Assembly: GCA_032718475.1 (NCBI GenBank)
Contig: JAUCBJ010000641.1
Coordinates: forward strand, 57,723-121,722
Length of the DNA stretch: 64,000 bases
Direction of reading: 5' to 3'
Source: Nemertoderma westbladi
Taxonomy: Eukaryota > Animalia > Xenacoelomorpha
The notes under the pieces were generated by a model, which was not told the DNA's origin, searched no databases, and was given only the letters and a program-made list of their open reading frames with translations. Positions 21,371 to 62,487 of this stretch are shown here, piece by piece; position 1 is the stretch's first letter, and each line of letters starts with the position of its first letter. A program made the position numbers and the translations under genes.

Positions 21371-21399
21371 CCGCTCCCAGAAAATGGGATTTTCAGTCT

Positions 21400-25222: not shown

Positions 25223-25235
25223 CCAACCTACTCTA

Positions 25236-25858
25236 CTACTACTACTACTAGGATCGGCATGCTGCATTGCAGCTGCATTTTTAAGAATGCTGTGCCGGCT
25301 TGTCAACAAAATTGCACCGCCACAACTCCCTATCACCCATGACATTTGCTAGATCATCCGCATCTTTAAGGCCAGTGTCCTTTAAGATGCGTCTCAAGAA
25401 AGTCATGGGCTGTCCACCATGCTTATTCGCTCCATGAGGCTGCCAAAGTACAAGATTATGCACTGGCTGGTCCTCACGGCGAAAGCAATGTCCTGCAAAG
25501 CGGAGGCGATTTTGTTCTAGTGTCAAGCTTGGGGGAACCAATGAGACACCTCCAATGTTATATAGTGTCTGGTTGGAGATGTGTGCATTGTACTTGACAC
25601 AATGTACCCGGCGTAGCATTCTTGTGAATGTGCCATCCAGAGATTTGGTGTCCTCAGCAGTTAGAGCCCAGCATGGACTCCCGTAGAGGAGTACTGGAAC
25701 TACTGCTGCTCTAAATAATCGGACCTTAAGTTTCCGATTAATTCTAGGTGACTTCCAAATCCTGGAAAGCCTATTCAAGGCTGCCCATGCCTTTCCCTTA
25801 CGTATTCGAAGGTCCTCACCTGACTTCCGGATCCATGATCCCAGGTAACAGAAGTCGT
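25236..25858 (-). mobile_element. 5'-truncated RTE-like LINE inserted in element A
   Basis: DFCYLGSWI...RIWKS...LLYGSPCW...LRFAGHCFR; (TAG)n tail; 13-bp TSD CCAACCTACTCTA at 25223-25235 and 25859-25871; empty site present in B near 50465. Confidence 0.92.
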
Positions 25859-28800
25859 CCAACCTACTCTAGTTCTTACCGCATAGGTCTGTAGGGGCTG
25901 CGGTTGAGCAGGCCGTTTCTCTAACGTCTCCAGCGCCTCATGCGCGTTTTGGCCGATGAGTATTTGCACTCCAGGATAATCAGTCTGGAATCGAGGTATG
26001 TTAAGATGTTGGATGCTCTCATCCTCGTCCCAATCATAAAGGTCTGCTTGAGTAGTAGCGAAGTTCTTTATAGCCACCATTTTCACTGACCTTATGCTGT
26101 GTTCTCCTAATTCGTCCTGGGGGGTGGACAACGCTCCGACATAATAATCAGCTGTTATTGTAGATTTCCAAACTTGCATAATGCCTGACATGTTGAGCTT
26201 AGTTTGGAACTTGGGTTGTCCAGCAAATATATTTTCGGCTAGCTCTTTATCGATGAATGTTCCTGTGCTGCCGGAGTCCAGGAGGGCGTTCACTATATAG
26301 CTCTTCTGAGGTCCGTGGACCCGTAACTGGACTACAGGAAATTCTCGGATTCCTATATTGGAAGTTGGCGCTTTCCAAGATGGTTGTTGATCGGAAGTAG
26401 TTAAGGTAAGGTCGCTGTCTGTGTCTTTCTCGTACACGAGTGTTCGATACACTGCGGTGGTGTTTATTAGGTAACAGGATTCGTTTTGGTCGGAGAACTC
26501 GTCCGTATAGAATCCTTCCATCTCAGATTGATCAGTGTCGTTCACATCACTGAATTGGACATGTAGTTCGGACTCACTTACCTGACTCGGGCTGTTTCGT
26601 TCGAATTCCGTGTGCAACAAGATATGATGTTTTGCGCCGCACTTTGCACACCTTGCGTCGGAGTTACAGGTTCGCCGTTGGTGTCCTCGTCTGAGGCAAT
26701 TATAACACAACCGCTTATCCCACATGACTTCACGTCTATCCTTTAGTGATTTCCTCAGGAATTTATCACACGCATTTAAACGGTGGGGCCCGTCGCACAG
26801 CACACATTTGGGCTTGATGTTACTTACTTTAACATGTGCTGTGTGGTGCACACTTGTTCTTTCCTCAGGCTTTCTCACCTGAATTCTTTTAGGAGACGTA
26901 GGAGGGGTTTTTTGTACCGGTTCCCTTCTGTCATTGGGTCGAGACTTGGATTTACTTACCTGATCTTTAGGCATTTTATTGACATAAGATCTGTCAGTGT
27001 CTTTCCCGCTGTCCTCTCCTTGAGAAGTTTGGCTTTCACCGTCGTCGGTATAACATACTGGTATTACCCTTCTCCTAGAAACGGGTTTCTCACTTACCTT
27101 ACTTTCCGCTGTCTTCTCTCTGGACTGCTTCAGGAGCTGTAATTTCACTTCTCCATCTAGGAATGACATGAGATCAGCCATGGTAGGGTCTCGCCGTTGT
27201 TGTTCCATCATATATAACACTTTCTTATCCCAGCGTGTACCTACTCCACCTTTAGGTAAAGTAGAAGCCACTGCTCTAATAACCATAGTGTTCTGATACT
27301 CATGAGACTTACCTAGCCAATCTAATTGTCTGCAGATCTCCTGGATCTCATCGGAAAACTCGATAATTCCGCTACTAATAAACTTTCGGGGCGCTACTAA
27401 CTTTGCATACAAGTACCCAGCGATATTATTCCTATTACCATACCTGATATTTAGTGTATCCCAAACTTGTCTTAATCCGTCTGGATGTCCAATAAACTTT
27501 AACGCCATTAACTTGGGAGATCCTTCCAAGCATTCGATGAGGTATCTAAGTTTTTCTCCATTAGATAGTACAGAGTTCTGTATGTTATCTTTGTAATATT
27601 CATTAAAAGGTAACCATTTCATCTCATCTCCATTGAACTTAACGATCTCTCCCACCTTTACCGCTTGTCGGGCTTCGGTTCTAGCCATTTGACGCGTAAA
27701 ACTTTCTTGGGCCATCGTGCTATTTAATATCGAATTATCGGTATATAAATTTCTCGGATTATGATCAGTTCTATATGGAATATCATTATCAACAGGTCTA
27801 TAATTACCCTTAATAGGGTTCACTATAGGAGTTTCTACTTCGCTAGCAGTATAGATGCGTGTAGGCTCCACACCTTGCGCATGCGATACTTCAGACCTAA
27901 CAGGTTGACACATTGTTACAGAGGGTGGTGGTATACCCTTTTGGGTGTTTACTAATTTATCGCGTTCAAGCGCGATACTTTGCTGCACTTCTTGCAACTC
28001 TAGCCTACTTTCCCTTACTGTGCCCTTGAATTGTTGGACAGTCTCCTGCATCTGCCCGAGCAGGAGATCCATCCCCCGTCGTCTCTCGTCCACCCATTCG
28101 ACCGCCGAAGCGGGAGTCGCCAACGTTGTAGCGGGCGGACGAGGGACAACGGGCGACAAATCTGGAATATTTCGCTCGGAGTCCAGGGTATGCACTGTCT
28201 CATGGACTGTTCTGCTGGGCACAGGTAGCTTAGTGCTGTGCAAAGGGAATTGAGAAGTAGGTTCAGGGAGTACAGGTGTCTCTACGACCGAAAGGGTAGC
28301 TTCGGGAACAGGCCTAATTATTTCAGGCTCATCTACTATAGTAGGGAGTCTCTCTATTGTAATTATTTGGTCTGTGGGTTCTGTACTACCTACTTTGGTG
28401 TTATTTAGTTGCCTTCTAACAGCTGGAGGCAAATCAGGCAATTTCTGCCGGTGGAATGTTCTTTTACGTCTGCTTAGGCGAGATCGATTTCTTCCGCCTT
28501 CAGTGTCGGTGGTATTGCCTTCCTCAGATGATGTATACCCCTGTCTCTTGGGAGTAGATCGACTCATCATCTGCATATTGCTCGCTGTTAACTGTTTATT
28601 GAAGTTGTCTTGCTTCTCTTGAAGAATTTCCAACTCTAGTTGGGTTGCCTCTTCAGATGCCCTCCGTTCGGCTTCTACCACTGCCTCTGCTATTGCCAGT
28701 GCCGCTTTTCTTTCGGCTTCTGCCGCTGCCACTGCTGCTGCCACTGCCGTTGTCTTTCTATCTTCTATACGTTTTTTCTTTACTTGTTCTTCTTGTTCTC

Positions 28801-29929
28801 TAGCAATGCGGAGTTGTTCATCGAATTTAGCTTGGTTCGCCGCTAACCTATCCACATCAATCGCATCTAACACGAGTTTGGCTCCTTCGCTATTAGGGCT
28901 AAGTCCCTCTAGCCTTCTCCTCAACTCTTCATCTCCCAAAAAACGCTGATAGTCTGACAGATAGATATCAATGGCATCCTTCTTATGCGGTTTCTCTGCC
29001 GTCGCTTCACTTTCCACTTGGGAAAAAGTAGCGTCCGTCGATTCTCCATGGGTTGAGCGCTCCTCCAACTGAGCTTTCCACTGAGCTGCTCCTTGAACCT
29101 GGCGACTCACCCGTTGAAACCAAGTTTTTACGGCAACTTGCAACGACGTGTCTTGTTTTCTTTTAGAAGCCTCCTCAAAGGCGGATAAGATTAGCCTAAT
29201 CCGCAAAACTCTTTCTCTAACTTGATAAAGCAGCGATCCCTGCTCTTGAGGTCCTTGAGGTTGTTGAAAAAGTTGCTTTTCTACTCGCTCCACAGAGCTG
29301 AAGAATCCCTGTGCGTATCCGGCTGCGGACCTCTTCCACACAGCTGGATCGATGGTTTCCTTGGCTACTCCCATCCGGTGTATGTCTTCCCAGGCAGCTT
29401 CTGATAAATCAAACGGGAGTCCGGGTCCGGGGAAGTTCCATTGCAACTCGACAATAGACTTCAGTTCTTCACTCGTGTATCCCGCGTAACTATCTCTAGT
29501 TGACCGTTGACTTCTCGCCCAATCGATCTGGTGTTCTTCCACCGCGATCAATAACCCAGCGAGCACGGCTGCAGGAAGGATGAGAAGGGGATCCGTATAA
29601 ACCGCATCCGTCATCTCTGCTCCGCGCTCGGGTGTCAGCTCTACAGTATCCTCACTACTGGAGCTGCTGGGCCGCTGAGGAATAAGTTCTTGACTAGCGG
29701 GTTGTTGCTGTTCCGCTGCTTGTTGGTCCCGCTTGACCTGAGCTCGGGTGCCTATGATAGACCTACGATGTTGGACTAGCCTAGGTTCTGTTATTACTAC
29801 TGGAGGGATGACCTTCCTCACAGTGGGAGGTGAACTGAACTTACGACCAGACGGTTGTACGTCTCGATCTGAGTTGCAGATAGTTACATCTAATAAACTG
29901 TCTGACAGGTTCTGCTTAGTATCAGACAT
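25859..29929 (-). CDS. BEL/Pao Gag-protease of element A (frame runs into the RTE insert to 25775)
   Basis: KFNGDEMKWLPF capsid-like region, three Cys/His knuckles, ALLDSGS protease. Confidence 0.9.
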
Positions 29930-32139
29930 GACTAGGTATGTACAGTTGAATGCCTACTGCTATATTACAGTCTAAGCAAGTCTAGTAACTCAGTATTAAC
30001 TGCTAGCCTAGTAATTAATTACCGTTACTGCTACTCAGTGTAGCGTGATATATAATATATTATAATACCGGTATGCTTATAGTATAGATAACTATTATTA
30101 CAGACTAGTTTTATCACCGAATACCGGTATAATTTAGCACAAATATATATAAATATATAATAGGTCTATCTGGAATACCGGTATACAGCTTACAGTTTGT
30201 AGGATATATAATTCTGAAATAGAATTAATTACACGTACCGGTATAATTTCAGCCTAGATTTATAGAAATAAAGATAATAGGCCTATCGTAAATACCGGTA
30301 TATCAATTATTTTAAAAATAACTGAATTTCTGAATTTCAAGGGTTACTTGGTTACTTTACTTACTTTATTACCGTTATTTGAGCAGTAATCCAACTGATA
30401 TTGAGACCTAATGGTTGTATGGTAGGCCTACTATTTATAAATCGTTAGATTTGATTTATAATATATATATACCCGTTTTAATGGGTTTTGTCTATGTTTG
30501 AAATAAATGTTATTATTTCTGGGGTAATCACTACACAAAGCGGTGCGCTTTCAGTGAAGTGTTACGTATAGGACACTAAAACAAATGATTCTAATTTACC
30601 TAAGTTACTTAATACTACAAATTACGTACAATTCGGGTTGAGATTACAATCTCTAAATAAACACAAAAATTTACAAAAACACAAATACGAATTTTTTAGG
30701 GTAATTTTACAAGAAGTCTACAAACCAGTCTAACAAAGGGTTAGAAATCTGGTTATTACAGCGGACAGGGTACTGCGGTATTTGAAAATAATACGTAGTA
30801 GTAAATACACTGCGTTGTCTAGATAGGAAAATACCACCGCCTGACGACCTATAGCCGTATCGTTATAGGTTCTACGTTATGTATCACGGAGTGTTCCTAT
30901 CTAGAAGTTAATAGAGCTAATCGAATGTGCCTATCAACCACTTTACAACACAAATATAATGCCTACACTAATTACTTCGGAAAGTACTGTACACTAAACC
31001 CTAAATTAGGTACGAGTACTTGTACAACAGATAATCAGTAGTTAAATATACTTGAACAGCTAAAAGAACCACGGCATCTGCTGGAGTGACCGATGCACAA
31101 AATCACCAGTCTTTACCTACGCCGAGCAGCCCGTGTAGTACCGGGGTTAATTTAACTATAGCGGTATGTATAACAAACACAATTACTGTAGGAACAAACT
31201 TGGGGAATGAATGTTGCGGATAATCGCATAAACTCTGAATAATAAATATTACGCTACGCGTACAAACTACTCAAACAAAATACAGACCGAACACTGACAG
31301 ACTACTATCAAGCCTAAACAAACTACGGTATATGCAGACTCCGAAATGATTAGGGAGTATGCGCTCTAACCCAGTAGTGCGACTTATTCTTTAGTTGGGG
31401 GTTTACCTTACAGCGTTCGCTGCCCCTACTTCCTAACCGTACTTAATCAGACAAATGATCTACACACACTGCAATCCGTTCAGACCTAATAACAGCCAGA
31501 CAACTATCCAGCCTACAAATTATCTAAATAAAATTATACGCTACCCGTACAGACTTACACAAACAAAGTACAGACTAAACGATGGCAGACTACTCTCAAG
31601 CCTAAATAAACCGCAGGACATGCAGACTCCGAAATGATTAGGGAGTATGCGCTCTAACCCAGTAGTGCGACTTATTCTTTAGTTGGGGGTTTACCTTACA
31701 GCGTTCGCTGCCCCTACTTCCTAACGGTACTTAATCGGACAGGTGATCTACACACACTGCAATTCGTTCGGACTTAACAGCAATCAGACAACAGCTCAGC
31801 CTACAAATCGTCTGTACAATCTGATCAGGCTTACACGCCTTCTGTTCAATACTGGCCTACAAATAAATAAAACTTGACAGAAATAAGTAAACCATATAAA
31901 GGAATAAGGGGTGATCAATCCCTAATCCCTCAAACAGCCTACCGGTATGCAACAATCAAATCGAATAATACTAGTGTACTTATACGGAAGTACCGGTTAG
32001 GACAGCTAGGCCCTACTGACCTACGGCAGTACCGGTTCTAGCGGTTGGGCCTACTGACCTACAGATGTACCGGTCTGCCGGTTCAGGTTTACCGGTTGAC
32101 CAGTACTTTCAACTTTATTGCTTACTGCAACAAAGAAGC

Positions 32140-32151
32140 TATATCCTTTAA
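32140..32151 (-). promoter_or_regulatory. Primer-binding position of A, complementary to its own LTR (32905-32916)
   Basis: Minus strand reads TTAAAGGATATA directly after the LTR, no TGG; LTR minus strand contains TATATCCTTTAA. Confidence 0.7.
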
Positions 32152-33358
32152 TGTTCGCGCTTTCAGACCTTTGGCAGTTTAACCCGCCAAATTAAGATGT
32201 CTTCTAGATATTAAATCGTTTTTAGTCTATGACAAGTATTTGATTCACTACACTAGTCGAAACCAATCTGTGCGCGACCATTCACCCGCTGGATATTCCC
32301 GGGAGATTGGGTTTGACGGTTTAATTTTATTGCTATGTAAGCCTAATGTATTATTCGACTGACAGTATTATATAATCTCTGACAATATTATTCACCTTCG
32401 GGAATATTAACAGTTCCTTTAGGACGTGGCGCTTTATCTATATAAACAGAGTTATGACTTAAACTACTCACAACGATATGGCTTAATTATAATTCACATA
32501 TATGGCGCATTCTTTAGGAATTGCTTCTTTAACAAACTCACTCATACGCAATGCTGCACAATACTGCACACTAATCTGCCAATCTTCACTGCTTTTAGTC
32601 ACATATAAAAGGAACACAGACTGACTCATGTAGGGTCTATCAAATAACATTAGATTCACTTCAAACCACTTTAACATAAGTCACAATCGTTATTGGTAAC
32701 CTTTCTCTCTTACCTTCGGTATATCAAGAATATTGGGTTTCGGGGTTATTTCTCGTTATTCCAAATATAATAATTCATCAACCATATTATGAAGAACTGA
32801 CAGTAAATAGCAGTATAAAACAACAACTGAACACTGATTGTTATGAGTTTGCAATGTTTCAGCAGTCAGGATGTATGATCAGTTAGCAGTGAGATATTTA
32901 CAGGTTAAAGGATATATGTCCTTATAATTAAACCTACTAGTGTAAGACTAAAAACTGAAAACACGGAGGTGCCAAAAGCCGGTTCTTAGGCTCTGGGCAA
33001 AAACATAACACTGAACTACTGAGTTTCTGTATATACCTCCAACACAGAGACAACAAACGCTCTGATTGGTCAACCTGAACAACGAGAGAACAAAGAAACA
33101 AAGAAACGTCGACGTGGCAATATCAGCTGCTAGCCGTCGTCATGGTAGCGACACTGTTTTCAAGAGTATCGAGCTTTTACGTCACGGAATTACGGATTAT
33201 GTCCTCTAAAGTACAAATACAGAAGAAATAGCTTTTATGTCCGCTAAAACACCAGTACAGCAAGGACACGGCCTTTTTATGCCTGGTAAACCAACTACAG
33301 AGTATTTTACGGGAAAAATAAGGAAAAATAACCGGGCAATTCAGCAAAAGCTTTTACA
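32152..33358 (-). repeat. 5' LTR of element A
   Basis: Direct repeat of 20164-21370. Confidence 0.97.
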
Positions 33359-33975: not shown

Positions 33976-33992
33976 TGGGGGCTCGTCCGGGA
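33976..33992 (+). promoter_or_regulatory. tRNA-Pro primer-binding site
   Basis: TGGGGGCTCGTCCGGGA, matching the tRNA-Pro PBS known from murine leukemia virus. Confidence 0.92.
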
Positions 33993-34151
33993 GGATTTTT
34001 TTTCTTCCTGGTTACTGCTGCTGGTTATAGACTTGTTACTTGTACCGTCAGACCGCTGGGCGTAGATATCGATTGTTGGTTATCGGTAAACTGGCTGACT
34101 TTGGACTTGTACCGGTAATATCAAGCATTCAGACAGTCAGCGAGTCAGGGT

Positions 34152-39375: not shown

Positions 39376-40531
39376 TGTTTGCGCTTTTAAGACCTTTGAC
39401 AGTTTAACCTGCCAAATTAGGATGTCTTTTAGATGATATATAGTCTTTAGCCTATGACGAGTATTTGATACACTACATTAGCCGAAGCCAGTCTATGCGC
39501 AATCATTCACCCGCTGGATATACCCGGGAGACTGAATTCGGAAGCTTAATGATTGATGGTGTAAGCCTACTGTATTATTCGACTGATCGTAATATATAAT
39601 CTCTGACAAATATTATTCACTTTCGGGAAATATTAACAGTTCCTTTAGGACGTGGCGCTCTAATTATGTAAACAGAGTTATGACTTAAACTAGACACAAC
39701 GAAAAGGCTATAGATTCACGTATATGGCGCATTCTTTAGGAGATGCTTTGTTATCAGTTACAATCATACACAATGCTGCACAATACTGCACACCAATCTG
39801 CCGACCTTCACTAATTTTAGTCACATACAAAGAGAATAACAGACAATACATGTAGGGCCTATAAAATAGCATTAGATTCACTTCAAACCACTTAACATAG
39901 GTCGCAATCGTTTATCTGTAACCTGTCTCTCTAACCTTTAGTATATCAAGAAGGTTGGGTGTCTGACTATTGATCAGTATTCCAAATATAATCTTCCATC
40001 AACAAATATAATGAATAACCGACAGCAAAAGCAGTAATGTTAAGTAAGATATGCATGATATGTTTAGTAAGCATTGATAAGGTAACTCGATAACAGATAT
40101 ACGTTCTATAATTAAGCCTACTAATGTAAGACTAAAGACTGAAACACGGAGGTGCCAAAAGCCGGTGTTCTTAGGCTCTGGGCAAAAACATAACACTGAA
40201 TTCCTGAGTTTCTGTATCCACCTCCAACACAGAGACAAAAACGCTCTGATTGGTCAACCGAACAACGAGAGAACAAAGAAACAAAGAAATGTCGACGTGG
40301 CAATATCAGCTGTTAACCGTCGTCATGGTAGCGACACTGTTTTCAAGAGTATCTAGCTTATCGCGTCACGAGATTGCGGATTATGTCCTCTAAAGTACAA
40401 ATACAGAGGAAATGACTTTTATGTCCTCTAAAACACCAGTACAGCAAGGACACGGCCTTTTTATGCCTGGCAAACCAACTACAGAGTACTTTAAGGGAAA
40501 ATAACCGGTTAATTACGCAAAAGCTTTTACA
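39376..40531 (-). repeat. 3' LTR of element B
   Basis: TGTTTGCGC...CTTTTACA; homologous to the other three BEL LTRs. Confidence 0.95.
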
Positions 40532-40609
40532 CCGCTCCCAGAAAATGGGATTTAAGTCTATAAAATATAACAAATCACAGTTTCTAAAATATAAAAATAC
40601 TCTAAACAG

Positions 40610-46513: not shown

Positions 46514-49500
46514 TTAAGTTGGGGAGTCCCTAGATGTTTGTTGGATTAGGGAGGTGGTCGTGGGAAGAGTATCTTGTCTCCCATAGTTTCCGGAGAGTTC
46601 TCTGTCTCTTTCCAGTAAACATAAACGTCCCACCGGGCGATTGAGCTGCTGCGTCTCGAAGAAAATTCCCGGTTTCTTGAAGTTACGTCGCATGACGACG
46701 AGTTCTACCGATCGCACCAAACCGTCATCCGAGATGTGGGTCTCGATGATACGACCTGTCTGCCACCTCTTACGTGGAAGATCTACATCCACAATAAGAA
46801 CCATGTCTCCAGCGCTAACGTTTTCTTGCTGCGCAAACCACTTAGTTCGAAGTTGTAGCGTGGGCAGATAATGTTTTTCGAAATGGTCAGCGAAACGACG
46901 GGATAACAACTGCATGAGTTGCCAAGTTTGTCGGCAGTATTCGTCTCCGTCTGTGATTTCCGATTGTGGGAGCATGGCTACAGGTTTCTTCAGTAGGAAG
47001 TGCGCGGGTGTTAGCGCTTCCAGGGAATCGGGACTCGATGAGACTGGCATAAGCGGTCTCTCGTTGAGATAGGCGGCGATTTCTTCCATTAACGTCCGCA
47101 AAAGTTCGTCGGTGAGATAAGCGCGGCAAGGCACTATAAAATGAAATGCTGTCTTCACGCTTCTTATTAATCTCTCCCAACTTCCTCCCCACCAAGGGGC
47201 GTCGGCGGCGTTGAAGGTCCAACTAGACGCTGTTACTCGTAGTTGGTCGTCCACCTGTCTTTGGTTCCAATCTTTGGCGTAAGCTTTGATTTCATTGTTG
47301 GCACCAATGAAGTTTGTTCCCTTATCAGATCTCATCGTGTTACTAGTGCCAAAGCGAGCGATCTGTCGTCGTAAGCTTAATAGAAAGCTGTTGGTAGATA
47401 AATCGTTCACCATATCGAGATGGATGGCTCTACAAGTCATACAAACAAAGATTACACACCATCTCTTGACTATAGTCCTAGCACGATATACTTCAATAGG
47501 GCCAAATAAATCCACACCGGTATTAGTAAAGGGTGGTTCATAAAAGCTTACTCGTTCCCTAGGTAATTCTGCCTCTCTCTGTGTTAAAGGCCTACTGAAT
47601 GCTTTCCTACAGGGTATACAGTTCCTAAGAACTTGGTTCAGAGCTCTACGGGGTTTATAAAAATAATAGCGAGTTCGAATTTCGCTAAGAACTCATTCTC
47701 TACCAGCATGATAAAGTTTGCTGTGAACATCTACAATCATCTTGACTTGTATTTCAAGATTTCTAATGAGTATGGGGAACTTAGTATCAAAGGATAATGG
47801 GGCATTCGTTAACCTTCCTCCAACACGTATCAACCCATCTATCATTGTGCTAGAGAAACGATCCCTTAAGCGCATCTGTGGATTTCTCAACAACAGGAAA
47901 TACTTATCGGAATCTTCATAGCATTGTAAGAGTCTCAGCATCTGTTTGTTGGTTTCTTCATGCTCCTGATAACTGATCTTCTCCTTCAGAAACTTGTCGG
48001 GTACCTTATATTTGGGAATGTCTTTAATAACATGGACCTGCACTGATGTGATTGGAGCGGTATCACCCTTTGTTTTCATCCCAGAGTAGTGATGGTGAAA
48101 ACATCTCTTTAAATATGTAACGGCCTTACAAAGCCGATTCCAAGAACTGTAGTGATGCATCGCTCTCTGCAGAAGAGGTGAGAGTCCTTGCGAGACGTCT
48201 GGTATACCAGATTTCCAATCCTTATCATGGATTTCCACAATGGGTTTATTTGTGGCTGTGGGTTTCTGATCCAAAGCGTCGTCTCCGGAAGTATGTAGTA
48301 CAGACAGATCTACTGTGGGTTTGAATAACTTCGATTTACTCGCCTGAGTTTTAGGTTTGACTTTCTCCGCTCCCTTGGCCTGTCTAATTTCTGCTGTAGT
48401 AAGATGAGGAGGCCATTCTTCTTCTTCTTGGTAGAGGAAGTTGGGTCCACCTAACCAGTCTGGAGTATCTACCAGTTCTTGTGGAGTTGCTCCCCTGGAA
48501 GCGATGTCTGCTGGATTAATCGTTCCGGGGCAATGTCTCCATTGATCCATCGTCGTGCGACTGAGTATAATAGCTACTCTGTTGGTAATAAAGACGCTGA
48601 ACTGACAGACTTCATTGGTTATATACTCCAACACGAGTAAAGCGTCGGTCCAATAGACAGTTTTCTCCAGGGGATAGTCGATCTGTTCTGTTACATTCCG
48701 GCCGATGGCTGTAGCGTATAGAGCCACTTTTAACTCCGCTCGAGGAACTTTCAACTTGTTGTTTATTAATGCCTTAGAGGTAACCAAGGCGACTTTAATT
48801 CCGTCCGGAGTTTCCACCCTTAGGTAGGCTACTATACCTATTCCCATATCGCTGGCGTCTCCAAACACATGGAGTTGATATGAATACGTAGGGAGAACAT
48901 GACCAAACTATGAACGGGAAATTATGAAGTTTTCGATGGCTGGTAGAGAATCTTCCCATTTCATCCACTTCTTTAATAATTCTCCCTTAAGTGGATCGTC
49001 CCATGAGTGGTTTTCAAGCCACATTTGTTGTACTAAACTCCGAGCAATCAATATAACTGGGCTAATAAATCCCAATGGATCGAAATAAGTGCTCAGGATA
49101 CTTAAACAAATCCGTTTAGTCCGAACTGGATTATCTCGCTGTTTTAATTGGAAAAACAGGATGTCTCTTTCTGTGTCCCATTTCAAACCAAGGGTCTTAG
49201 TTTCTGGGAGATCATCCTTTATTAGATCTAGGTCTTTTGCTCCTCGATCTTCTACCGGGATCGACTCCAGAAACTCACGGGAGTTGCTGGTGAATTTAGT
49301 TAATCGAAATCCACCTCTTTTTAAGCACTCTACCGTTCCTTTAGCGACGTCAATGGCTTCTTCGACTGATGGAAGGGACTTTAGATTATCGTCCATGTAG
49401 ATGTCTCGTTTGATATTGTCGATCACTTCTTTAGAGAAGGCGTCTCGGTTGTCATCCGCAGTGGTGCGCACCACGGAACAGGCGTTTGAAGGGCTCGAGA

Positions 49501-52500
49501 TTATCCCAAAGGCTTGGATGGTCATCCAGTACTCCACCGGTTTCTTGTTGAGGTCTCCTTCAGGCCACCACAGAAATCGTAGGCTGTCTCGATCCCTATC
49601 CAGCGCTTTGACTTGTAAGAACATGCCTTCTATATCTGAGGCGAAAGCAATTGAATATTGTCTTAATCTTAATAGTATTCCCAACAAGGATTGGAGTAAG
49701 TTGGGTCCGGGTAACAATTCAGAATTAAGAGATTGGCCCATATAAAGGGCGGAACCGTCAAACACCACTCGTACTTCATGGGGTTTACCGGGTTTGGGAA
49801 CGTAATGGTGAGTTAAATAATACGTTCTCTCAGTTATAGGTGTTTCTTCCGGTACTAGCTCCGCATATCCCTTGCTAATAAACTTCTTCAACTGCGTTTG
49901 ATACATTTCTTTAGCTGAAGAATTTGCCGTAAGGCGTCGATGTAGTTGCGCAATTCTTTTCTCCGCCAAAGGTCTGTTGTTAATGAACTTCGGTTCTCGC
50001 TTTCGGAAAGGAAGTCCGATCTCATACCTACCTTGATCTTTAAGAAAACGAGTAGTTGTCGCTTGGATCTGCTTGGCTCTTTCTTCCTCCACCGATAGGG
50101 CCTTATCGTAGGAGTTGGGCTCTACAACCTCTTGAGTAAAGAATCTTACGGCGTGTTCATCCCGAGTCTTGGCATTATAACGTTCAATGACGTCATTAAG
50201 CTCGTCGTTATAGTCGTCTCGCTCGGATGGGAGAAGGAGTTGACATAAGTTCACTTGATTTTGCCAAGTCTCGCTTTCCTTAAGGAGATCGATGGCATTC
50301 TCCTCATCGAAAAGTTGATATATATCGTCGTTGTCTGAGGAGTATGGAGTTCCCTCAGTTGGATCGTCGAACTCACTGTTCTCAACTTCCCATTCTCGCA
50401 CTTGATATACCTGATCTTTCGGTAATCTTTCCATGAGAGTTCTACGGGAAGGGCCAGTAAAGTACCAACCTACTCTAGTTCTTACCGCATAGGTCTGTAG
50501 TGGCTGCGGTTGAGCAGGCCGTTTCTCCAATGTCTCGAGCGCCTCATGCGCGTTTTGGCCGATGAGTATTTGCACTCCAGGATAATCAGTCTGGAATCGA
50601 GGTATCTTAAGATGTTGGATGCTCTCATCCTCGTCCCAATTATAAAGGTCTGCTTGAGTGGTAGCGAAGTTCTTTATAGCCACCATTTTCACTGACCTTA
50701 TGCTACGTTCTCCTAGTTCGTCCTGGGGGGTGGACAACGCACCTACATAATAATCCGCTGTTACTGTGGATTTCCAAACTTGCATAATTCCTGACATGTT
50801 TAGCTTAGTTCGGAACTTGGGTTGTCCATCGAATATGTCTTCGGCTAGCTCTTTGTCGATGAATGTTCCTGTACTACCGGAGTCAAGGAGGGCGTTCACT
50901 ACATAACTCCTTTTTGGTCCGTGGACCCTTACCTGTACCACAGGAAATTCTCTAATCCCTACATTGGAAGTTGGCGCTTTCCAAAATGGTTGTTGATCAG
51001 AAGTAGTTAGGGTAAGGTCGCTGTCCGTATCTCTTTCATACGTGAGTGCTCGATACACTGTGGTATTTATCGTGTAACAGGATTCGTTTTCGTCGGAGAA
51101 CTCGTCCGTATAGAATCCTTCCATCTCAGATTGATCAGTGTCGTTCACATCACTGAATTGGACATGTAGTTCGGAATCACTTACCTGACTCGGACTATTT
51201 CGCTCGAATTCAGTGTGCAACAAGATATGATGTTTCGCACCGCACTTGGCACATCTTGTGTCAGAGTAACAGGTTCGCCGTTGGTGTCCATGTCTGAGGC
51301 AATTATAACACAACCGCTTATCCCACATGACTTCACGTCTCTCAGTTAATGATTTCTTTAGAAATTCATCACACATATTTAAGCGATGGGTCCCATCACA
51401 TAGCGCACATTTCGGTTTGATGTTACTCACCTTACTCTGAGTAACATTGTGTACACTTGTTTTTTCTTCGGGCTTTCTCACCTGAATTCTCTTGGGAGAC
51501 GTAGGAGGAGTTTTTCTTACCTGCTCTCTCCTGTCATTGGTTCGAGACTTGAATTTACTTACCTGATCTTTAGGCATTTTATTTACGTAATAAGATCTGT
51601 CAGTGTCTTTCCCGCCATCTTCTCCTTGAGAAGTCTGGCTTTCGCCGTCATCTGTATAACACACTGGTGTTACCTTTCTCCTAGAGACGGGTTTTTCACT
51701 TACCTTGTTTTCCGGTGTCTTCTCTCTGGACAGTTTCAGGAGCTGTAATTTCACTTCTCCATCTAGGAATGACATGAGATCAGCCATGGTAGGGTCTCGT
51801 CGTTGTTGTTCCATCATATATAACACTTTCTTATCCCAGCGTGTACCTACTCCACCCTTCGGTAAAGTAGAAGCCACTGCTCTAATAACCATAGCACTCT
51901 GATACTCATGAGACTTACCTAGCCAATCTAATTGTCTGCAGATCTCCTGAATCTCATCGGAAAACTCTATAATCCCGCTGCTCATAAACTTTCGGGGCGC
52001 CACTAACTTTGCATACAAATACCCAGCTATGTTATTCCTATTACCATACCTGATGTTTAGTGTATCCCAAACTTGTCTTAATCCGTCTGGATGTCCAATA
52101 AACTTTAACGCCATTAACTTGGGAGATCCTTCCAAGCACTCGATGAGGAACCTAAGTTTCTCTCCATTAGATAGCACAGAGTTCTGTATGTTATCTTTGT
52201 AATATTCATTAAAAGGTAACCATTTCATCTCATCTCCATTGAACTTGACGATCTCTCCCACCTTTACTGCTTGCCGGGCTTCGGTTCTAGCCATTTGACG
52301 CGTAAAACTTTCTTGGGCCATCGTGTTATTTAATATCGAGTTATCGGTATATAAATTTCTCGGATTATGATCCGGTCTATAGGGAATATCATTATCAACA
52401 GGTCTATAATTACTCTTAATAGGGTTCACTATAGGAGTTTCTACTTCGCTAGCAGTATAGATGCGTGTAGGCTCCACACCTTGCGCATGAGATACTTCAG

Positions 52501-54589
52501 ACCTAACAGGTTGACACATTGTTACAGGGGGTGGTGGTATACCCTTTTGTAAATTTACTAATTTATCACATTCTAGCGCGATATTTTGCTGCACTTCTTG
52601 CAACTCTAACCTACTTTCCTTTACGGTTCCCTTTAACTGTTGAACAGTCCCTTCTAACTCTCGGACCTGTTGGGAGGAGCGCACTCGATTCTCCTCCATC
52701 TTTCCGAGGAGAATGTCCATCCCCCGCCGTCTCTCGTCCACCCAATCAACCGCCGAAGCGGGATCCGCCAACGTCGTAGCGGGCAGACGAGGGACTACGG
52801 GCGATATATCCTTTATATTTCGCTCGGAGTCCAGGACCGACACTGTTTCAAGGGCTGTTCCTCTAGGCACAGATAATTTGGTGCTGTGTAAAGGGAATTT
52901 AAAGGTAGGTTCTGGGAGTACAGGTGTCTCTATCACCGAAGGGGTGATTTCAAGAACAGGCCTAATTATTTCAGGCTCATCTACTATAGTAGGGAGTCTT
53001 TCTATTTTAATTATTTGGTCTGTGGGTTCTGTACTACCTAAGTTTGTGTTATTTAGTTGCCTTCTAACAGCTGGGGGCAAATCAGGTAATTTCTGACGGT
53101 GGGACATTCTTTTACGTCTGCTTAGGCGAGATCGATTTCCTCCTCCTTCAGGATCGGTGGTATCGCCTTCCTCAGATGATGTATAACCCTGTCTTTTGGG
53201 AGTAGATCGATTCATCATCTGCATATTACTAGCTGTTAACTGTTTACTGAAGTCGTCTTGCTTCTCTTGAAGATTTTCCAACTCCAGTTGGGCGATCTCT
53301 TCAGCCGCTCTCCGTTCTGCTTCCGCCACCGCCGCCGCTTTTGCCTCTGCCGCTGCTTCTGCCAAGGTCGCTTTTCTTTCTGCCTCTGCCACTGCTGCTA
53401 TCTTTCTGTCTTCTATACGTTTTTTCTTTATTTGTTCTTCTTGAACCTTAGCGATGCGGATACTTTCATTGAATTTAGCTTGGTTCGCAGCTAACCTATC
53501 CACATCGATTGCGTCCAACACACGCTGGGCTCCTTCACTATTAGGGCTAAGTCCCTCTAGCCTTCTCCTCAGCTCTTCATCACCTACAAAACGTTGATAG
53601 TCCGACAGATAGATATCAATAGCATCCCTCTTATGCGGTTTCTCTGCTGTCGCTTCACTCTCCACTTGGGAAAATGTAGCGTCTGTTGATTCTCCATGGG
53701 TTGAGCGCTCATCTAGTTGGGCTTTCCACTGAGCCGTTCCTTGAACCTGGAGACTCACCTTTTGAAACCAAGTCTTTACAGCAACTTGCAACGACGTGTC
53801 TTGTCTTCTTTTAGAAGCCTCCTCAAAGGCTGATAAGATTAGCCTGATTCGTAGAATTCTTTCTCTAACTTGATAAAGCAGTTGTCCCTGCTCTTGAGGT
53901 CCTTGGGGTTGTTGAAACAGTTGTTTTTCTACTTGCTCCATAGAGCTGAAGAATCCCTGTGCGTATCCGGCTGCGGACCTCTTCCACACAGCTGGATCGG
54001 TGGTCTCCTTGGCTACTCCCATCCGGTGTATGTCTTCCCAGGCAGCTTCTGATAAATCAAACGGGAGTCCGGGTCCGGGGAAGTTCCATTGCGACTCGAC
54101 CATAGACTTCAGTTCTTCCCTTGTGTATCCCTCATAACTATCTTTAGTTGATCGCTTACTTCTCGCCCAATCGATCTGGTGTTCTTCCACCGCGATCAAT
54201 ATCCTAGTGAGTACGGCTGCAGGCAGGATGAGAAGGGGATCCGAATAAACCGCATCCGTCATCTTTGCTCCGCGCTCGGGTGTCAGCTCTACAGTATCTT
54301 CACTACTGGAGCTGTTGGGCTGCTGAGAAATAAGTTCTTGGCTCGCGGGTTGTTGCTGTTCCGCTGCTTCTTGGTCCCGCTTGACCTGGGCTCGAGTGCC
54401 TATGATAGACCTATGATGTTGGACCAGCCTCGGTTCTGTTATTACTACTGGAGGGATGACCTTCCTCACAGTGGGAGGTGAACTGAACTTAGGTGTAGAC
54501 GGTTCTACACCCTTATCTGAGTCGCAGATAGTTACATCTAATAAACTGTCTGACATGTTCTGCTTAGTATCAGACATGTTTGTTTGCAC
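46514..54589 (-). pseudogene. BEL/Pao Gag-Pol of element B with two in-frame stops (48908-48910 TAG, 47693-47695 TGA)
   Basis: Three track ORFs share one frame; LLDSGS, DIEGMFLQV, YMDD, FGDASD, NPADIASRG, DLFGP, SDKGTNF, GSWERLI. Confidence 0.93.
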
Positions 54590-56784
54590 AGTTGAATGCC
54601 TACTGCTATATTACAGTCCAAGCAAGTCTAGTAATTCAGTATTAACTGCTAGCCTAGTAGTTAATTACCGATACTGCTACTCAGTGTAGCGTGATATATA
54701 TAATATTAGAATACCGGTATGCTTATGGTATATATAAGTATTATTACAGACTAGATTTTTCACAGAAACCGGTATATAATTTTAGCACAAATATATATAA
54801 ATATATAATAGGCCTATAGTGGATACCGGTATGCAGTTTACACTTATAGTATATATAAGTATAATTATTAACTAGAATTAATTACAGAATACCGGTATGA
54901 TTTCAGCTTATATTTATAAAATAAAAATAATAAGCCTATTGTAAATACCGGTATATCAATTATTTTAGAATAATTGAATTTCTGAATTTTAAGGGTTACT
55001 TGGTTACTTTAACTTACTTTATTACCGTTATTTGAGCAGTAGTCCAACTGATATTGAGACTTAATTGTTATATGGCAGGCCTACTATTTATAAATCGTTT
55101 GAGTTGATTTATAATATATATAGACCCGTTTAATGGGTTTTGTCAATGTTTGAAATAAATGTTATTATTTCTGGGGGAGTCACTACACATAAGCAGTGCG
55201 CTCTCAGTGGAGTGCTACTTGTTAGACACTAAAACAAATAATTCTAATTTATCTAAGTTACTTAATACTACAAATTACGTACAATTCGTTTGAGATTACA
55301 ATATCTAAATAAACACAAAAATTTAATTACAAATACACAAATACGAATTTTTAGGGTAATTTTACAAGAAGTCTACTAACCAGCCTAACAAAGGGTTAGA
55401 ATATCTGGTTATTACAACGGACAGGTTACTACGGTATTTGAAAATAATAAGTAGTAGTAAATATACTGTGTTATCCAGATAGGAAAATACCACCGCCTGA
55501 CGACCTATAACCGTATCGCTATAGGTACTACGTTATGTATCACGGAGTGTCCCTACCTAGAAGTTAATTACCGCGGTCTACCAGAACCAACGTGCCTATT
55601 AACCACTTTACAACACAAATACTGCCTACACACTAATTGCTTTCGGAAAGCACTGTACACTAAACCCTAAATTAGGTACAAGTACTTGTATAACAAATAA
55701 TCAGTAGTTAAAAATACTTGAACAGCCAAAAGAACCACGGTATCTGCCGGAGTGACCAAAGCACAAAATCTCCAGTCTTTACCTACGCCGAGCAGCCCTG
55801 ATGTAGTACCGGGGTTAGTTTAACTATAACGGTATGTATAACAAACACAATTACTGTAGGAATAAACTTGGGGAATGAATGTTGCGAATAATAGCATAAA
55901 CTCTGAATAATAAATATTACGCTACGCGTACAAACTACTCAAACAAAATGCAGACCAAATACTGACAGACTACTATCAAGCCTAAACAAACTACGGTATA
56001 TGCAGACTCCAAAATGATTAGTTAGTATGCGTTCTAACCCAGTAGTACGACTTATTCTTTCACAGGGGGTTTACCTCACAGCACTTGAAGCCCCTACTTT
56101 CCTAACTTAGCACTTTATCGGACAGATGCTCTACACACACCGAAATTTCCTCAAACCCAACAACAGCCAGACAACTATCCAGCCTACAAATTATCTAAAT
56201 AAAATTATACGCTACCCGTACAGACTACACAAACAAAGTACAGACCAAACGATGGCAGACTACTATCAAGCCTAAATAAACCACAGGACATGCAGACTCC
56301 GAAATGGTTAAGTAGTATGCGTTCTAACCCAGTAGTACGACTTATTCTTTAGATGGGGGTTTACCTTACAGCTATGGCTGCCCCTACTTCCTAACCGTTC
56401 TTTATCGGACATACACTCTACATGCACTGCAATCCGTTCAGACCTAATTAACAGTTAGCCAACAGTCAAGCCTACAAATTATCTGTACAATCTGAGCAGG
56501 CTTACACGCCTTCTGCTCAATACTGGCCTACAAATAAATAAAACTGACAGAAATAGGCCTAAGTAAAATCCCAATAAAAACCAGGCGTCCCCGATTAATT
56601 ATTAAGACCTACCGGCATATAATAATCAAATCGAATAATACTGCTGTACTTGTACTGTAAGTAAGTACCGGTCCGGATGATCAGGCAGTCAGGCCTACTG
56701 GTTACCGGTCGACCGGTACTTTCGACTAGATTGCTTACACCGCAATCCAGAAGCAATATCTGTTATTGTTTCTGGATTAGTTCA

Positions 56785-56795
56785 ATATCTGTTAT
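56785..56795 (-). promoter_or_regulatory. Primer-binding position of B, complementary to its own LTR (57519-57529)
   Basis: Minus strand reads ATAACAGATAT directly after the LTR; LTR minus strand contains ATATCTGTTAT. Confidence 0.7.
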
Positions 56796-57966
56796 TGTAT
56801 GCGCTTTTAAGACCTTTGACAGTTTAACCTGCCAAATTAGGATGTCTTTTAGATGATATATATTCTTTAGCTTATGACGAGTATTTGAGACACTACATTA
56901 GCCGAAGCCAGTCTATGCGCAATCATTCACCCGTTGGATATACCCGGGAGACTGAATTCGGAGCTTAATGATTGATGGTGTAAGCCTACTGTATTATTCG
57001 ACTGATCGTAATATATAATCTCTGACAAATATTATTCACTTTCGGGAAATATTAACAGTTCCTTTAGGGCGTGGCGCTCTAAATATGTAAACAGAGTTAT
57101 GACTTAAACTAGACACAACAAAAAGGCTATAGATTCACGTATATGGCGCATTCTTTAGGAGATGCTTTGTTATCAGTTACAATCATACACAATGCTGCAC
57201 AATACTGCACACTAATCTGCCAACCTTCACTAAATTTGGTCACGTATAAAGAGAGCAACATACAATTTATGTCGGGCATATGAAATAGCATTAGATTCAC
57301 TTCAAACCACTTAACATAGGTCGCAATCGTTTATTTGTAACCGGTCTCTCTAACCTTTAGTATATCAAGAAGGTGGGGTGTCTGACTATTGATCAGTATT
57401 CCGATATAATATTTCATCAACCAATATAATGAATAACCGACAGCAAAAGCAGTAATATTAGTAATTTATGGATAGATATGGTATGTTAACTCGAATTGCA
57501 TTGGTATGGTTAGGTTAGATAACAGATATACGTTCTATAATTAAGCCTACTGATGTAAAGCTAAAGAATGCTGATATACGGAGGTGCCAAAAGCCAATGT
57601 TCTTAGGCTCTGGGCAAAAAACATAACACACTGAACTACTGAGTTCTGTATACACCTCCAACACAGAGACAAAAAACGCTCTGATTGGTCAACCGAACAA
57701 CGAGAGAACAAAGAAACAAAGAAATGTCGACGTGGCAATATCAGCTGTTAGCCGTCGTCATGGTAGCGACACTGTTTTCAAGAGCACCCAGCCCACCGCG
57801 TCACGAGACCGCGGATTATGTCCTCTAAAGTACAAACACAGAAGAAACGACCCCCACGCCCTCCAAAACACCAGCACAGCAAGGACACGGCCCTTTTATG
57901 CCTGGCAAACCAACTACAGAGTACTTTAAGGGAAAATAACCGGTTAATTACGCAAAAGCTTTTACA
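56796..57966 (-). repeat. 5' LTR of element B
   Basis: TGTATGCGC...CTTTTACA; clearly diverged from 39376-40531. Confidence 0.95.
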
Positions 57967-60900
57967 GAAACTTTCAGTTTGAAATGTATAAAATGTGAAA
58001 CTTTCAGTTTGAAATGTATAAAATGTGAATCTTTCAGTTTGAAATGTATAAAATGTGAAACTTTCAGTTTGAAATGTATAACATGTGAAACTTTCAGTTT
58101 GAAATGTATAAAATGTGAAACTTTCAGTTTGAAATGTATAAAATGTGAAACTTTCAGTTTGAAATGTATAACATGTGAAACTTTCAGTTTGAAATGTATA
58201 AAATGTGAAACTTTCAGTTTGAAATGTATAACATGTGAAACTTTCAGTTTGAAATGTATAAAATGTGAAACTTTCAGTTTGAAATGTATAAAATGTGAAA
58301 CTTTCAGTTTGAAATGTATAAAATGTGAAACTTTCAGTTTGAAATGTATAAAATGTGAAACTTTCAGTTTGAAATGTATAAAATGTGAAACTTTCAGTTT
58401 GAAATGTATAAAATGTGAAACTTTCAGTTTGAAATGTATAAAATGTGAAACTTTCAGTTTGAAATGTATAAAATGTGAAACTTTCAGTTTGAAATGTATA
58501 AAATGTGAAACTTTCAGTTTGAAATGTATAAAATGTGAAACTTTCAGTTTGAAATGTATAACATGTGAAACTTTCAGTTTGAAATGTATAAAAAGTGAAA
58601 CTTTCAGTTTGAAATGTATAAAATGTGAAACTTTCAGTTTGAAATGTATAAAATGTGAAACTTTCAGTTTGAAATATATAAAATGTGAAACTTTCAGTTT
58701 GAAATGTATAAAATGTGAAACTTTCAGTTTGAAATGTATAACATGTGAAACTTTCAGTTTGAAATGTATAACATATGAAACTTTCAGTTTGAAATGTATA
58801 AAATGTCAAACTTTCAGTTTGAAATGTATAAAATGTGAAACTTTCAGTTTGAAATGTATAACATGTGAAACTTTCAGTTTGAAATGTATAAAATGTCAAA
58901 CTTTCAGTTTGAAATGTATAAAATGTGAAACTTTCAGTTTGAAATGTATAAAATGTCAAACTTTCAGTTTGAAATGTATAAAATGTGAAACTTTCAGTTT
59001 GAAATGTATAAAATGTCAAACTTTCAGTTTGAAATGTATAAAATGTCAAACTTTCAGTTTGAAATGTATAAAATGTGAAACTTTCAGTTTGAAATGTATA
59101 AAATGTCAAACTTTCAGTTTGAAATGTATAAAATGTGAAACTTTCAGTTTGAAATGTATAAAATGTGAATCTTTCAGTTTGAAATGTAGAAAATGTGAAA
59201 CTTTCAGTTTGAAATGTATAAAATGTGAAACTTTCAGTTTGAAATGTATAAAATGTGAATCTTTCAGTTTGAAATGTATAAAATGTGAAACTTTCAGTTT
59301 GAAATGTATAACATGTGAAACTTTCAGTTTGAAATGTATAAAATGTCAAACTTTCAGTTTGAAATGTATAAAATGTGAAACTTTCAGTTTGAAATGTATA
59401 ACATGTCAAACTTTCAGTTTGAAATGTATAAAATGTCAAACTTTCAGTTTGAAATGTATAAAATGTGAAACTTTCAGTTTGAAATGTATAACATGTGAAA
59501 CTTTCAGTTTGAAAAGTATAAAATGTGAAACTTTCAGTTTGAAATATATAAAATGTGAAACTTTCAGTTTGAAATGTATAAAATGTGAAACTTTCAGTTT
59601 GAAATGTATAAAATGTGAAACTTTCAGTTTGAAATGTATAAAATGTGAAACTTTCAGTTTGAAATGTATAAAATGTGAAACTTTCAGTTTGAAATGTATA
59701 AAATGTGAAACTTTCAGTTTGAAATGTATAAAATGTGAATCTTTCAGTTTGAAATGTATAAAATGTGAAACTTTCAGTTTGAAATGTATAACATGTGAAA
59801 CTTTCAGTTTGAAATGTATAAAATGTCAAACTTTCAGTTTGAAATGTATAAAATGTGAAACTTTCAGTTTGAAATGTATAACATGTGAAACTTTCAGTTT
59901 GAAATGTATAAAATGTCATACTTTCAGTTTGAAATGTATAAAATGTGAAACTTTCAGTTTGAAATGTATAAAATGTGAATCTTTCAGTTTGAAATGTAGA
60001 AAATGTGAAACTTTCAGTTTGAAATATATAAAATGTGAAACTTTCAGTTTGAAATGTATAAAATGTGAAACTTTCAGTTTGAAATGTATAAAATGTGAAA
60101 CTTTCAGTTTGATATGTATAAAATGTGAAACTTTCAGTTTGAAATGTATAAAATGTGAAACTTTCAGTTTGAAATGTATAAAATGTGAAACTTTCAGTTT
60201 GAAATGTATAAAATGTGAAACTTTCAGTTTGAAATGTATAAAATGTGAAACTTTCAGTTTGAAATGTATAAAATGTGAAACTTTCAGTTTGAAATGTATA
60301 AAATGTGAAACTTTCAGTTTGAAATGTATAACATGTGAAACTTTCAGTTTGAAATGTATAACATGTGAAACTTTCAGTTTGAAATGTATAACATGTGAAA
60401 CTTTCAGTTTGAAATGTATAACATGTGAAACTTTCAGTTTGAAATGTATAAAATGTCAAACTTTCAGTTTAAAATGTATAAAATGTCAAACTTTCAGTTT
60501 GAAATGTATAAAATGTCAAACTTTCAGTTTGAAATGTATAAAATGTCAAACTTTCAGTTTGAAATGTATAAAATGTCAAACTTTCAGTTTGAAATGTATA
60601 AAATGTCAAACTTTCAGTTTGAAATGTATAAAATGTGAAACTTTCAGTTTGAAATGTATAACATGTGAAACTTTCAGTTTGAAATGTATAAAATGTGAAA
60701 CTTTCAGTTTGAAATGTATAAAATGTGAAACTTTCAGTTTGAAATGTATAAAATGTGAAACTTTCAGTTTGAAATGTATAAAATGTGAAACTTTCAGTTT
60801 GAAATGTATAAAATGTGAAACTTTCAGTTTGAAATGTATAAAATGTGAAACTTTCAGTTTGAAATGTATAAAATGTGAAACTTTCAGTTTGAAATGTATA

Positions 60901-62487
60901 AAATGTGAATCTTTCAGTTTGAAATGTATAAAATGTGAAACTTTCAGTTTGAAATGTATAAAATGTGAAACTTTCAGTTTGAAATGTATAAAATGTGAAA
61001 CTTTCAGTTTGAAATGTATAAAATGTGAAACTTTCAGTTTGAAATGTATAAAATGTGAATCTTTCAGTTTGAAATGTATAAAATGTGAAACTTTCAGTTT
61101 GAAATGTATAAAATGTCAAACTTTCAGTTTGAAATGTATAAAATGTGAAACTTTCAGTTTGAAATGTATAACATGTGAAACTTTCAGTTTGAAATGTATA
61201 AAATGTCAAACTTTCAGTTTGAAATGTATAAAATGTGAAACTTTCAGTTTGAAATGTATAAAATGTGAATCTTTCAGTTTGAAATGTAGAAAATGTGAAT
61301 CTTTCAGTTTGAAATGTATAAAATGTGAAACTTTCAGTTTGAAATGTATAAAATGTGAAACTTTCAGTTTGAAATGTATAACATGTGAAACTTTCAGTTT
61401 GAAATGTATAAAATGTCAAACTTTCAGTTTGAAATGTATAAAATGTGAAACTTTCAGTTTGAAATGTATAACATGTGAAACTTTCAGTTTGAAATGTATA
61501 AAATGTCAAACTTTCAGTTTGAAATGTATAAAATGTGAAACTTTCAGTTTGAAATGTATAAAATGTGAATCTTTCAGTTTGAAATGTAGAAAATGTGAAA
61601 CTTTCAGTTTGAAATGTATAAAATGTGAAACTTTCAGTTTGAAATGTATAAAATGTGAATCTTTCAGTTTGAAATGTATAAAATGTGAAACTTTCAGTTT
61701 GAAATGTATAACATGTGAAACTTTCAGTTTGAAATGTATAAAATGTCAAACTTTCAGTTTGAAATGTATAAAATGTGAAACTTTCAGTTTGAAATGTATA
61801 ACATGTGAAACTTTCAGTTTGAAATGTATAAAATGTCAAACTTTCAGTTTGAAATGTATAAAATGTCAAACTTTCAGTTTGAAATGTATAAAATGTCAAA
61901 CTTTCAGTTTGAAATGTATAAAATGTCAAACTTTCAGTTTGAAATGTATAAAATGTGAAACTTTCAGTTTGAAATGTATAACATGTGAAACTTTCAGTTT
62001 GAAATGTATAAAATGTGAAACTTTCAGTTTGAAATGTATAAAATGTGAAACTTTCAGTTTGAAATGTATAAAATGTGAAACTTTCAGTTTGAAATGTATA
62101 AAATGTGAAACTTTCAGTTTGAAATGTATAAAATGTGAAACTTTCAGTTTGAAATGTATAAAATGTGAAACTTTCAGTTTGAAATGTATAAAATGTGAAA
62201 CTTTCAGTTTGAAATGTATAAAATGTGAATCTTTCAGTTTGAAATGTATAAAATGTGAAACTTTCAGTTTGAAATGTATAACATGTGAAACTTTCAGTTT
62301 GAAATGTATAAAATGTCAAACTTTCAGTTTGAAATGTATAAAATGTGAAACTTTCAGTTTGAAATGTAGAAAATGTGAAACTTTCAGTTTGAAATGTATA
62401 AAATGTGAAACTTTCAGTTTGAAATGTATAAAATGTGAAACTTTCAGTTTGAAATGTATAAAATGTGAAACTTTCAGTTTGAAATGT
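57967..62487. repeat. 30-bp tandem array, ~150 units
   Basis: AAATGTGAAACTTTCAGTTTGAAATGTATA with point variants and no visible indels. Confidence 0.98.

Follow-up and report, generated by a model that had tools for sequence, protein, structure and literature searches.

A derived, one-stranded A-to-G cluster in the U3 region of a Bel/Pao retrotransposon of Nemertoderma westbladi, probably left by RNA editing

Organisation of the locus

The window analysed here, a stretch of 64,000 nucleotides from contig JAUCBJ010000641.1 of Nemertoderma westbladi, contains two related Bel/Pao elements, A and B, together with satellites, other retroelement remnants and one host exon (Table 1). The MEMO1 exon lies on the same strand as both Bel/Pao elements and has matches in many invertebrate phyla, with up to ~75% identity; together with the Bel/Pao content it marks the host as an animal, probably an invertebrate. 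The LTRs of the small Ty3/gypsy-like element differ at 2 sites and are flanked by the 5-bp duplication AGCTC/AGCTT (4/5 positions); a gag remnant occupies 34119-34811, and the primer-binding position begins TTTGGGGGC.

Table 1. Positions of the features found in the window
Feature	Position	Strand	Evidence or remark
42-bp satellite array	1-10650		~253 copies
MEMO1 exon	~11070-11170	-	only host gene seen
LINE ORF	13273-16470		endonuclease and RT domains, 1065 aa open
Second RT fragment	19048-20226		interrupted by element A
Element A, related internally deleted Bel/Pao copy	20164..33358	-	outgroup for cluster
Second A/G-skewed stretch	24710..24880	-	pol remnant of element A
Element A primer-binding position and LTR word	32140-32151 with 32905-32916	-	12 nt; LTR positions 442-453
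Ty3/gypsy-like small element	33488-36212	+	486-bp LTRs
Element B, Bel/Pao	39376-57966	-	Pfam, LTRs
3' LTR of element B	39376..40531	-	1156 bp, unedited
Putative PPT, short purine-rich tract	40532..40539	-	precedes 3' LTR; same in element A
Extra ORF, 480 aa	40610-42052	-	after pol; zinc-knuckle-like motifs below Pfam cut-off
Extra ORF, 975 aa	41976-44903	-	after pol
gag-pol of element B	46514..54610	-	DUF1759, YMDD, Peptidase_A17, DUF5641
Primer-binding position, element B	56785..56795	-	11 nt directly after 5' LTR, complementary to own LTR
5' LTR of element B	56796..57966	-	1171 bp, TG...CA ends; carries cluster
LTR word complementary to B primer-binding position	57519..57529	-	LTR positions 437-447
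A-to-G cluster (T>C on + strand)	57785..57893	-	LTR-vs-LTR alignment, 109 bp
30-bp satellite	57967..62487	.	adjoins edited LTR; absent at left end of element B

Element B is a Bel/Pao retrotransposon on the minus strand. It combines the characters of the Belpaoviridae, namely a DUF1759 gag, Peptidase_A17, DUF5641, a YMDD motif (residue 1738 of gag-pol), LTRs with TG...CA ends and the order PR-RT-RH-IN; the Pfam match to the aspartyl protease fell below the cut-off, and pol is interrupted near 48908 and again near 47693 by an in-frame stop. The purine-rich tract stands before the left LTR when the minus strand is read, which makes the left LTR the 3' and the edited LTR the 5' one. The ORFs, this tract and the primer-binding position together fix the sense strand, so that T>C on the plus strand corresponds to A>G on the sense strand of the element. 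Neither the 975-aa nor the 480-aa ORF contains a transmembrane segment, and they are thus not env-like. The LTRs of element A differ at 3 of 1207 sites, and this copy is bounded by a perfect 5-bp target-site duplication.

Position of the cluster in U3 and predicted self-priming

Measured from its 5' end, the 1171-nt LTR carries the cluster at 74-182 nt, with a CCAAT downstream of it at LTR position 279. In both elements the nucleotides at the primer-binding position are complementary to a word within the element's own LTR, for which the chance expectation was 0.0013 in element B (11 nt) and 0.0004 in element A (12 nt). The two LTR words fall in the same alignment column, and the three differences between them are accompanied by matching changes in the primer-binding position. 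Both Bel/Pao elements are predicted to use self-priming of the Tf1 type; we infer a start site near LTR position 437, where the RNA 5' end and the U3/R border are predicted to lie. With or without self-priming, the cluster is in U3. No tRNA genes were found in the 64-kb window.

The arrangement resembles that of Tf1 and Tj1, in which the sequence following the 5' LTR can pair with an 11-12-nt word of the LTR and not with a tRNA end (PMC4600332, PMC6317226). In these two sources self-priming is described for Tf1/Sushi and Tcn1 (Ty3/gypsy) and for TAR (Ty1/copia), whereas the elements considered here are Bel/Pao. A literature search found no report of self-priming in Bel/Pao, although papers using the spelling 'Bel-Pao' may have been missed.

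The A-to-G cluster

Global alignment of 57785-57893 with 40350-40458 of the left LTR gave 19 T>C changes, one further difference (G>A at 57843) and no gaps, exactly the counts of a first-pass annotation made from the sequence. With the left LTR as reference, 19 of the 28 T in the 109 bp had changed to C (68%) and none of the 35 A to G, so that the change is confined to one strand. The LTR pair of element B shows 73 substitutions in 1152 aligned columns. Outside the cluster T>C contributes only 2 of 53 substitutions (2 of 296 T columns), the ordinary divergence between these LTRs being a mix of 11 substitution types. With the 21 T>C changes scattered at random over the 324 T columns, no 109 columns received more than 10 in any of 20,000 trials, compared with the 19 observed.

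The unchanged adenines of the sense strand are clumped, seven consecutive ones falling in 57816-57831 (runs test, p = 0.008). A 14-nt sequence occurs both in this unchanged block and at 57854, where it is heavily changed, which argues that the outcome depended on position and not on sequence. All four A of a run at 57852-57855 are changed.

Direction of change and support in independent contigs

Both LTRs of element A carry T at 18 of the 19 cluster sites and G at the remaining one, 57789. At 57843 they side with the right, edited LTR, so the G/A difference there arose in the left LTR. Independent data were taken from the contigs of four public DNA runs (X1-X4), representing three samples and aligned at 80% likeness; the resulting variant table covers at least 16 of the 19 sites. 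At 57787, 57796, 57809 and 57810, T was present in all aligned contig depth of X1-X4, and at 57893 in 94-100% of it, ~5% of X1-X3 depth not being T. At 57789, T accounts for 36-47% of X1-X3 depth and X4 has G. In 57849-57859 the single contig of X4 has T at the five listed sites, and depth is 0 in X1-X3.

Since T is found in the LTRs of element A and in the family contigs, T is the state of the family, from which C is derived. The first-pass annotation had read this polarity from the A LTRs, where T does prevail, and had named a wider alignment as the place where an ancestral C would appear; the family contigs of the four runs carry T. RIP or CpG decay in the other copies, which would make C ancestral, is ruled out by the same outgroups. 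The cluster is confirmed in the assembled sequence as a derived, one-stranded A-to-G change in the U3 of a Bel/Pao 5' LTR.

The C haplotype was present in no aligned contig of X1-X4, from three samples that may not include the source individual and whose contigs drop rare variants. The fractions of the words of 55900-57966 present in the four runs were 0.64, 0.59, 0.50 and 0.16. Low-depth contigs were retained (LTR variants at depth 6-40 in X1, flank contigs at 25-35 in X2 and X3), and for this reason the absence of the C haplotype makes it slightly less likely that the copy is fixed in the species. As to whether the C alleles are real DNA, the contig result neither confirms nor refutes it.

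The left LTR and the composition of element B

In one round of reverse transcription, U3 ends up in both LTRs. Because of this duplication, one edited RNA should yield two edited LTRs, and the left (3') LTR of element B is without the edits of the cluster. The first-pass annotation overlooked the location in U3 when it proposed RNA editing, a proposal that holds only if the left LTR derives from another insertion, and it called 40350-40458 the sister LTR.

Several observations bear on this point. Element B has ACTAC as its left flank and GAAAC as its right flank, and hence no target-site duplication. The 30-bp satellite that adjoins the edited LTR is found nowhere else in the window. Outside the cluster the two LTRs differ at 8/404, 44/442 and 1/197 columns (53/1043 in total), and, again leaving the cluster aside, 57380-57966 contains 28 substitutions, at least 9 of which show the left-LTR letter in family contigs, for which reason these 9 are variants standing in the family and not post-insertion damage; many of the others lie within 57464-57517, where contig coverage is thin. 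The missing target-site duplication, the satellite on the right side only, the 53 other substitutions and the family-level differences together indicate that the left LTR is probably another insertion than the edited LTR and not its twin, contrary to the first reading.

Element B is probably a join of two insertions, produced by recombination, conversion or assembly, one of which lay in the 30-bp satellite, whose left part is missing. Therefore the one-LTR pattern neither refutes RNA editing nor proves anything new. The edited twin LTR predicted by the RNA-editing model was not found in the window, and among the matches listed (32 pieces) no contig spans the left junction of element B.

A second A/G-skewed stretch in element A

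In a scan of A against B over 12,331 aligned columns, the two strongest signals were the U3 cluster and a stretch within what remains of pol in element A. In the latter, G in A stands against A in B at 23 sites and the reverse at 5 (203 columns), compared with 9 and 9 in the flanking columns (266 columns); the scan gave p = 0.010 (5000 direction shuffles, both transition classes), and the changes are distributed over the codon positions as 11, 7 and 5. The 103 homologs considered as an outgroup were only ~30% identical over the full length and unusable. The stretch looks like an older edit in the lineage of element A, or perhaps G>A in B, and is weaker than the cluster.

Neighbour preference and duplex partner

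The 5' neighbour is reported to be the most influential one for ADAR in vitro (PMC3113232), and G upstream is reported to be depleted at ADAR sites across Metazoa (PMC5625713). In the cluster, counted on the sense strand, adenines were edited in 7 of 10 cases after U, 6 of 7 after A, 3 of 4 after C and 3 of 7 after G, the 9 unchanged adenines following U (3), A (1), C (1) and G (4). The counts given by the first-pass annotation (U 7, A 6, C 3, G 3) were correct. The preference that it drew from them did not reach significance: the excess of U/A at edited sites gave p = 0.41 (Fisher), and the deficit of 5' G, 3/19 at edited against 4/9 at unedited sites, gave p = 0.17 (n = 28 adenines). Adenines after G are nevertheless the least edited class (3/7, against 16/21 for the others), and pooling with the second stretch, 24710-24880, brought the 5' G deficit to p = 0.06.

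The fold-back dsRNA that had been suggested as a further check was not found in the window. The best inverted match to the cluster was 15 bp (E = 1.7), the only inverted self-match in the window at E < 0.001 was an unrelated 67-bp pair, with no inverted copy of the family, and the U3 end folded no better than its shuffles (z = -1.13); a 12-bp helix, the best in a 2.1-kb fold, was treated as chance. The family is abundant, its summed contig depth reaching thousands to hundreds of thousands as against 25-35 for the flank contigs. With no fold-back found, the partner would be an antisense transcript of another copy, and the abundance of the family makes an antisense RNA acting in trans the likely, though presumed, partner. 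Sense-antisense pairs and young repeats are described as main ADAR targets in animals, with editing at sense-antisense pairs reported to be common in some of them (PMC9989829).

Origin of the cluster

We consider it probable that host ADAR hyper-edited the RNA of the element, which was then reverse-transcribed and later underwent recombination. The genomic transcript would carry U3 at its 3' end, the only place where this region would occur in RNA, and ADAR would have edited this end while it was paired with the presumed antisense RNA from another family copy. Reverse transcriptase reads inosine as G. The edited cDNA product may then have integrated into the 30-bp satellite, its 3' part being replaced later through recombination, cDNA conversion or an assembly join with another family member, and with that part the edited twin LTR would have gone from the window. 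The unedited block 57816-57831 might have stayed unpaired within the duplex, or might stem from a switch of template to unedited RNA. The proposal of the first-pass annotation, an edited genomic RNA reverse-transcribed and integrated, fits the direction, strand and density of the changes; neighbour preference, duplex partner and the contigs searched for C alleles have not added to it. Counted against the ADAR reading is the share of changed adenines, 68%, which is higher than the 'nearly 50%' quoted for retroviral cases.

Deamination of the adenines in DNA, either in plus-strand strong-stop DNA, from which only the 5' LTR arises, or in the integrated LTR, with ADAR acting on the DNA strand of an antisense R-loop, appears unlikely, although it predicts exactly what is seen, a sense-strand A>G cluster in U3 restricted to the 5' LTR. 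Hypoxanthine is normally excised from DNA. Moreover, with the left LTR probably another insertion, the one-LTR pattern needs no special mechanism. ADARs do deaminate dA in DNA/RNA hybrids in vitro, but that activity is best at mismatches or with a mutant enzyme (PMC5389660). That ADAR edited plus-strand strong-stop DNA or an R-looped 5' LTR specifically in a hybrid with antisense RNA, leaving a scar in the 5' LTR only, is in our view quite unlikely. If it were true, invertebrates without APOBECs would possess an adenosine-based DNA-editing defence against LTR retrotransposons, and the second stretch, in element A, would mean that the Bel/Pao family was struck more than once.

An artefact of assembly, arising from the use of edited RNA-derived reads in polishing or gap filling or from a local consensus error in a repeat, is improbable to a like degree. 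It would agree with the absence of the C haplotype from the contigs of four DNA runs and with the depth of 0 at 57849-57859 in X1-X3, and an assembler can also yield two unlike ends joined as in element B. However, even the best run contains only 0.64 of the words of the stretch, and contigs drop rare variants. In 150 units of the adjacent 30-bp satellite, none of the 77 variant letters is T>C or A>G, the remaining U3 differs at 1/197 columns, and polishing by DNA reads would pull toward the majority T. To our knowledge a pure one-stranded burst of transitions is not a known read error.

A burst of reverse transcriptase errors, in which skewed pools led to G opposite template T during plus-strand synthesis and hence to A>G in the 5' LTR only, is very unlikely. 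It would give a single type of change on the sense strand of the 5' U3 without dsRNA, in keeping with the failure to find a duplex, and the run of four A (57852-57855) is changed throughout. Against it stand the change of 68% across 109 nt, sharply bounded and with exact copying to either side, and the unedited 57816 block, identical in 14 nt to the edited one at 57854, which favours position over sequence. Furthermore, pool-driven hypermutation is mainly known as G>A.

That C is ancestral, or an ordinary divergent subfamily allele, is scarcely credible: in other parts of the LTR the two B copies do represent different haplotypes of the family, and the family is polymorphic at 57789 (T, G) and in ~5% of X1-X3 depth at 57893, but T in element A, ~20% diverged in the LTR, and in contigs of three samples has already largely refuted it, as has an ordinary LTR divergence of 11 types with T>C at 2/53.

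Other mechanisms were rejected. TpA-specific hypermutation of duplex DNA, which is confined to TA steps and affects both strands, does not fit, with only 7/19 sites following U/T and one strand only changed; APOBEC editing needs G-to-A on the sense strand, where A-to-G is seen; and for a deaminase encoded by the element no HxE...PCxxC motif was found in the six frames of either element A or B.

Relation to known systems

A-to-G hyper-editing, reaching nearly 50% of A, is reported for the U3 of Rous-associated virus 1 and for avian leukosis virus in two reviews, with Felder (1994) and Hajjar and Linial (1995) as the primary work (PMC12925331, PMC8586724). These avian retroviruses share with the present case an A-to-G cluster in U3 that is short, dense and confined to one strand, and that stands in DNA once reverse transcription is over. 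Here, in contrast, the element is an endogenous Bel/Pao in the genome assembly of a probably invertebrate animal, presumably of the germ line, 68% of the adenines and not ~50% are changed, no inverted repeat was found and the twin LTR is missing.

In the APOBEC screen of Knisbacher and Levanon, G-to-A marks made on minus-strand DNA were found fixed in vertebrate LTR retrotransposons (PMC4866542). In the same screen, 19 invertebrate genomes are placed at noise level and other cluster types called negligible (PMC4866542). The marks discussed here are likewise clustered, strand-biased, located in a genomic LTR element and polarised against its family; theirs are G-to-A, whereas these are A-to-G on the sense strand.

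Metazoan ADAR hyper-editing of repeat-derived dsRNA, as described in two studies, resembles the cluster in affecting a young, abundant repeat with dense A-to-G (PMC5625713, PMC9989829). It is lowest after 5' G (PMC5625713), for which only a trend is seen here, and it is observed in RNA over unchanged DNA (PMC5625713, PMC9989829), while the present changes are in the DNA sequence. None of the titles and abstract openings searched dealt with fixed ADAR marks in endogenous LTR elements of invertebrates, Bel/Pao included, subscription papers lying mostly outside this search.

ADAR editing of repeat RNA is widespread and regarded as transient; here an RNA edit would have become heritable. If this is true, packaged retrotransposon RNA is within the reach of ADAR in the germ line, and RNA heavily loaded with inosine can still be copied and integrated. 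It is tempting to see in the cluster, which so far is one short cluster in one copy, an A-to-G counterpart of the deaminase marks of vertebrate retroelements, in an animal group for which the screen reported no APOBEC-type editing (PMC4866542). Because U3 is duplicated at reverse transcription, the site of editing is readable from intact copies: marks in both LTRs would point to RNA, marks in the 5' LTR only to plus-strand DNA.

Further observations on the two elements

The 975-aa ORF of element B has no Pfam match, and no homolog was found among 7997 candidates of 536-1707 aa. Atlas scores of 0.82-0.83 were obtained for it, the highest (0.83) giving a weak lead to a 3'-5' exonuclease domain. 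Element A retains a part of this ORF that is 75% alike. The leader region of both elements contains a 288-bp tandem duplication, at 31234-31808 in element A and 55902-56484 in element B.
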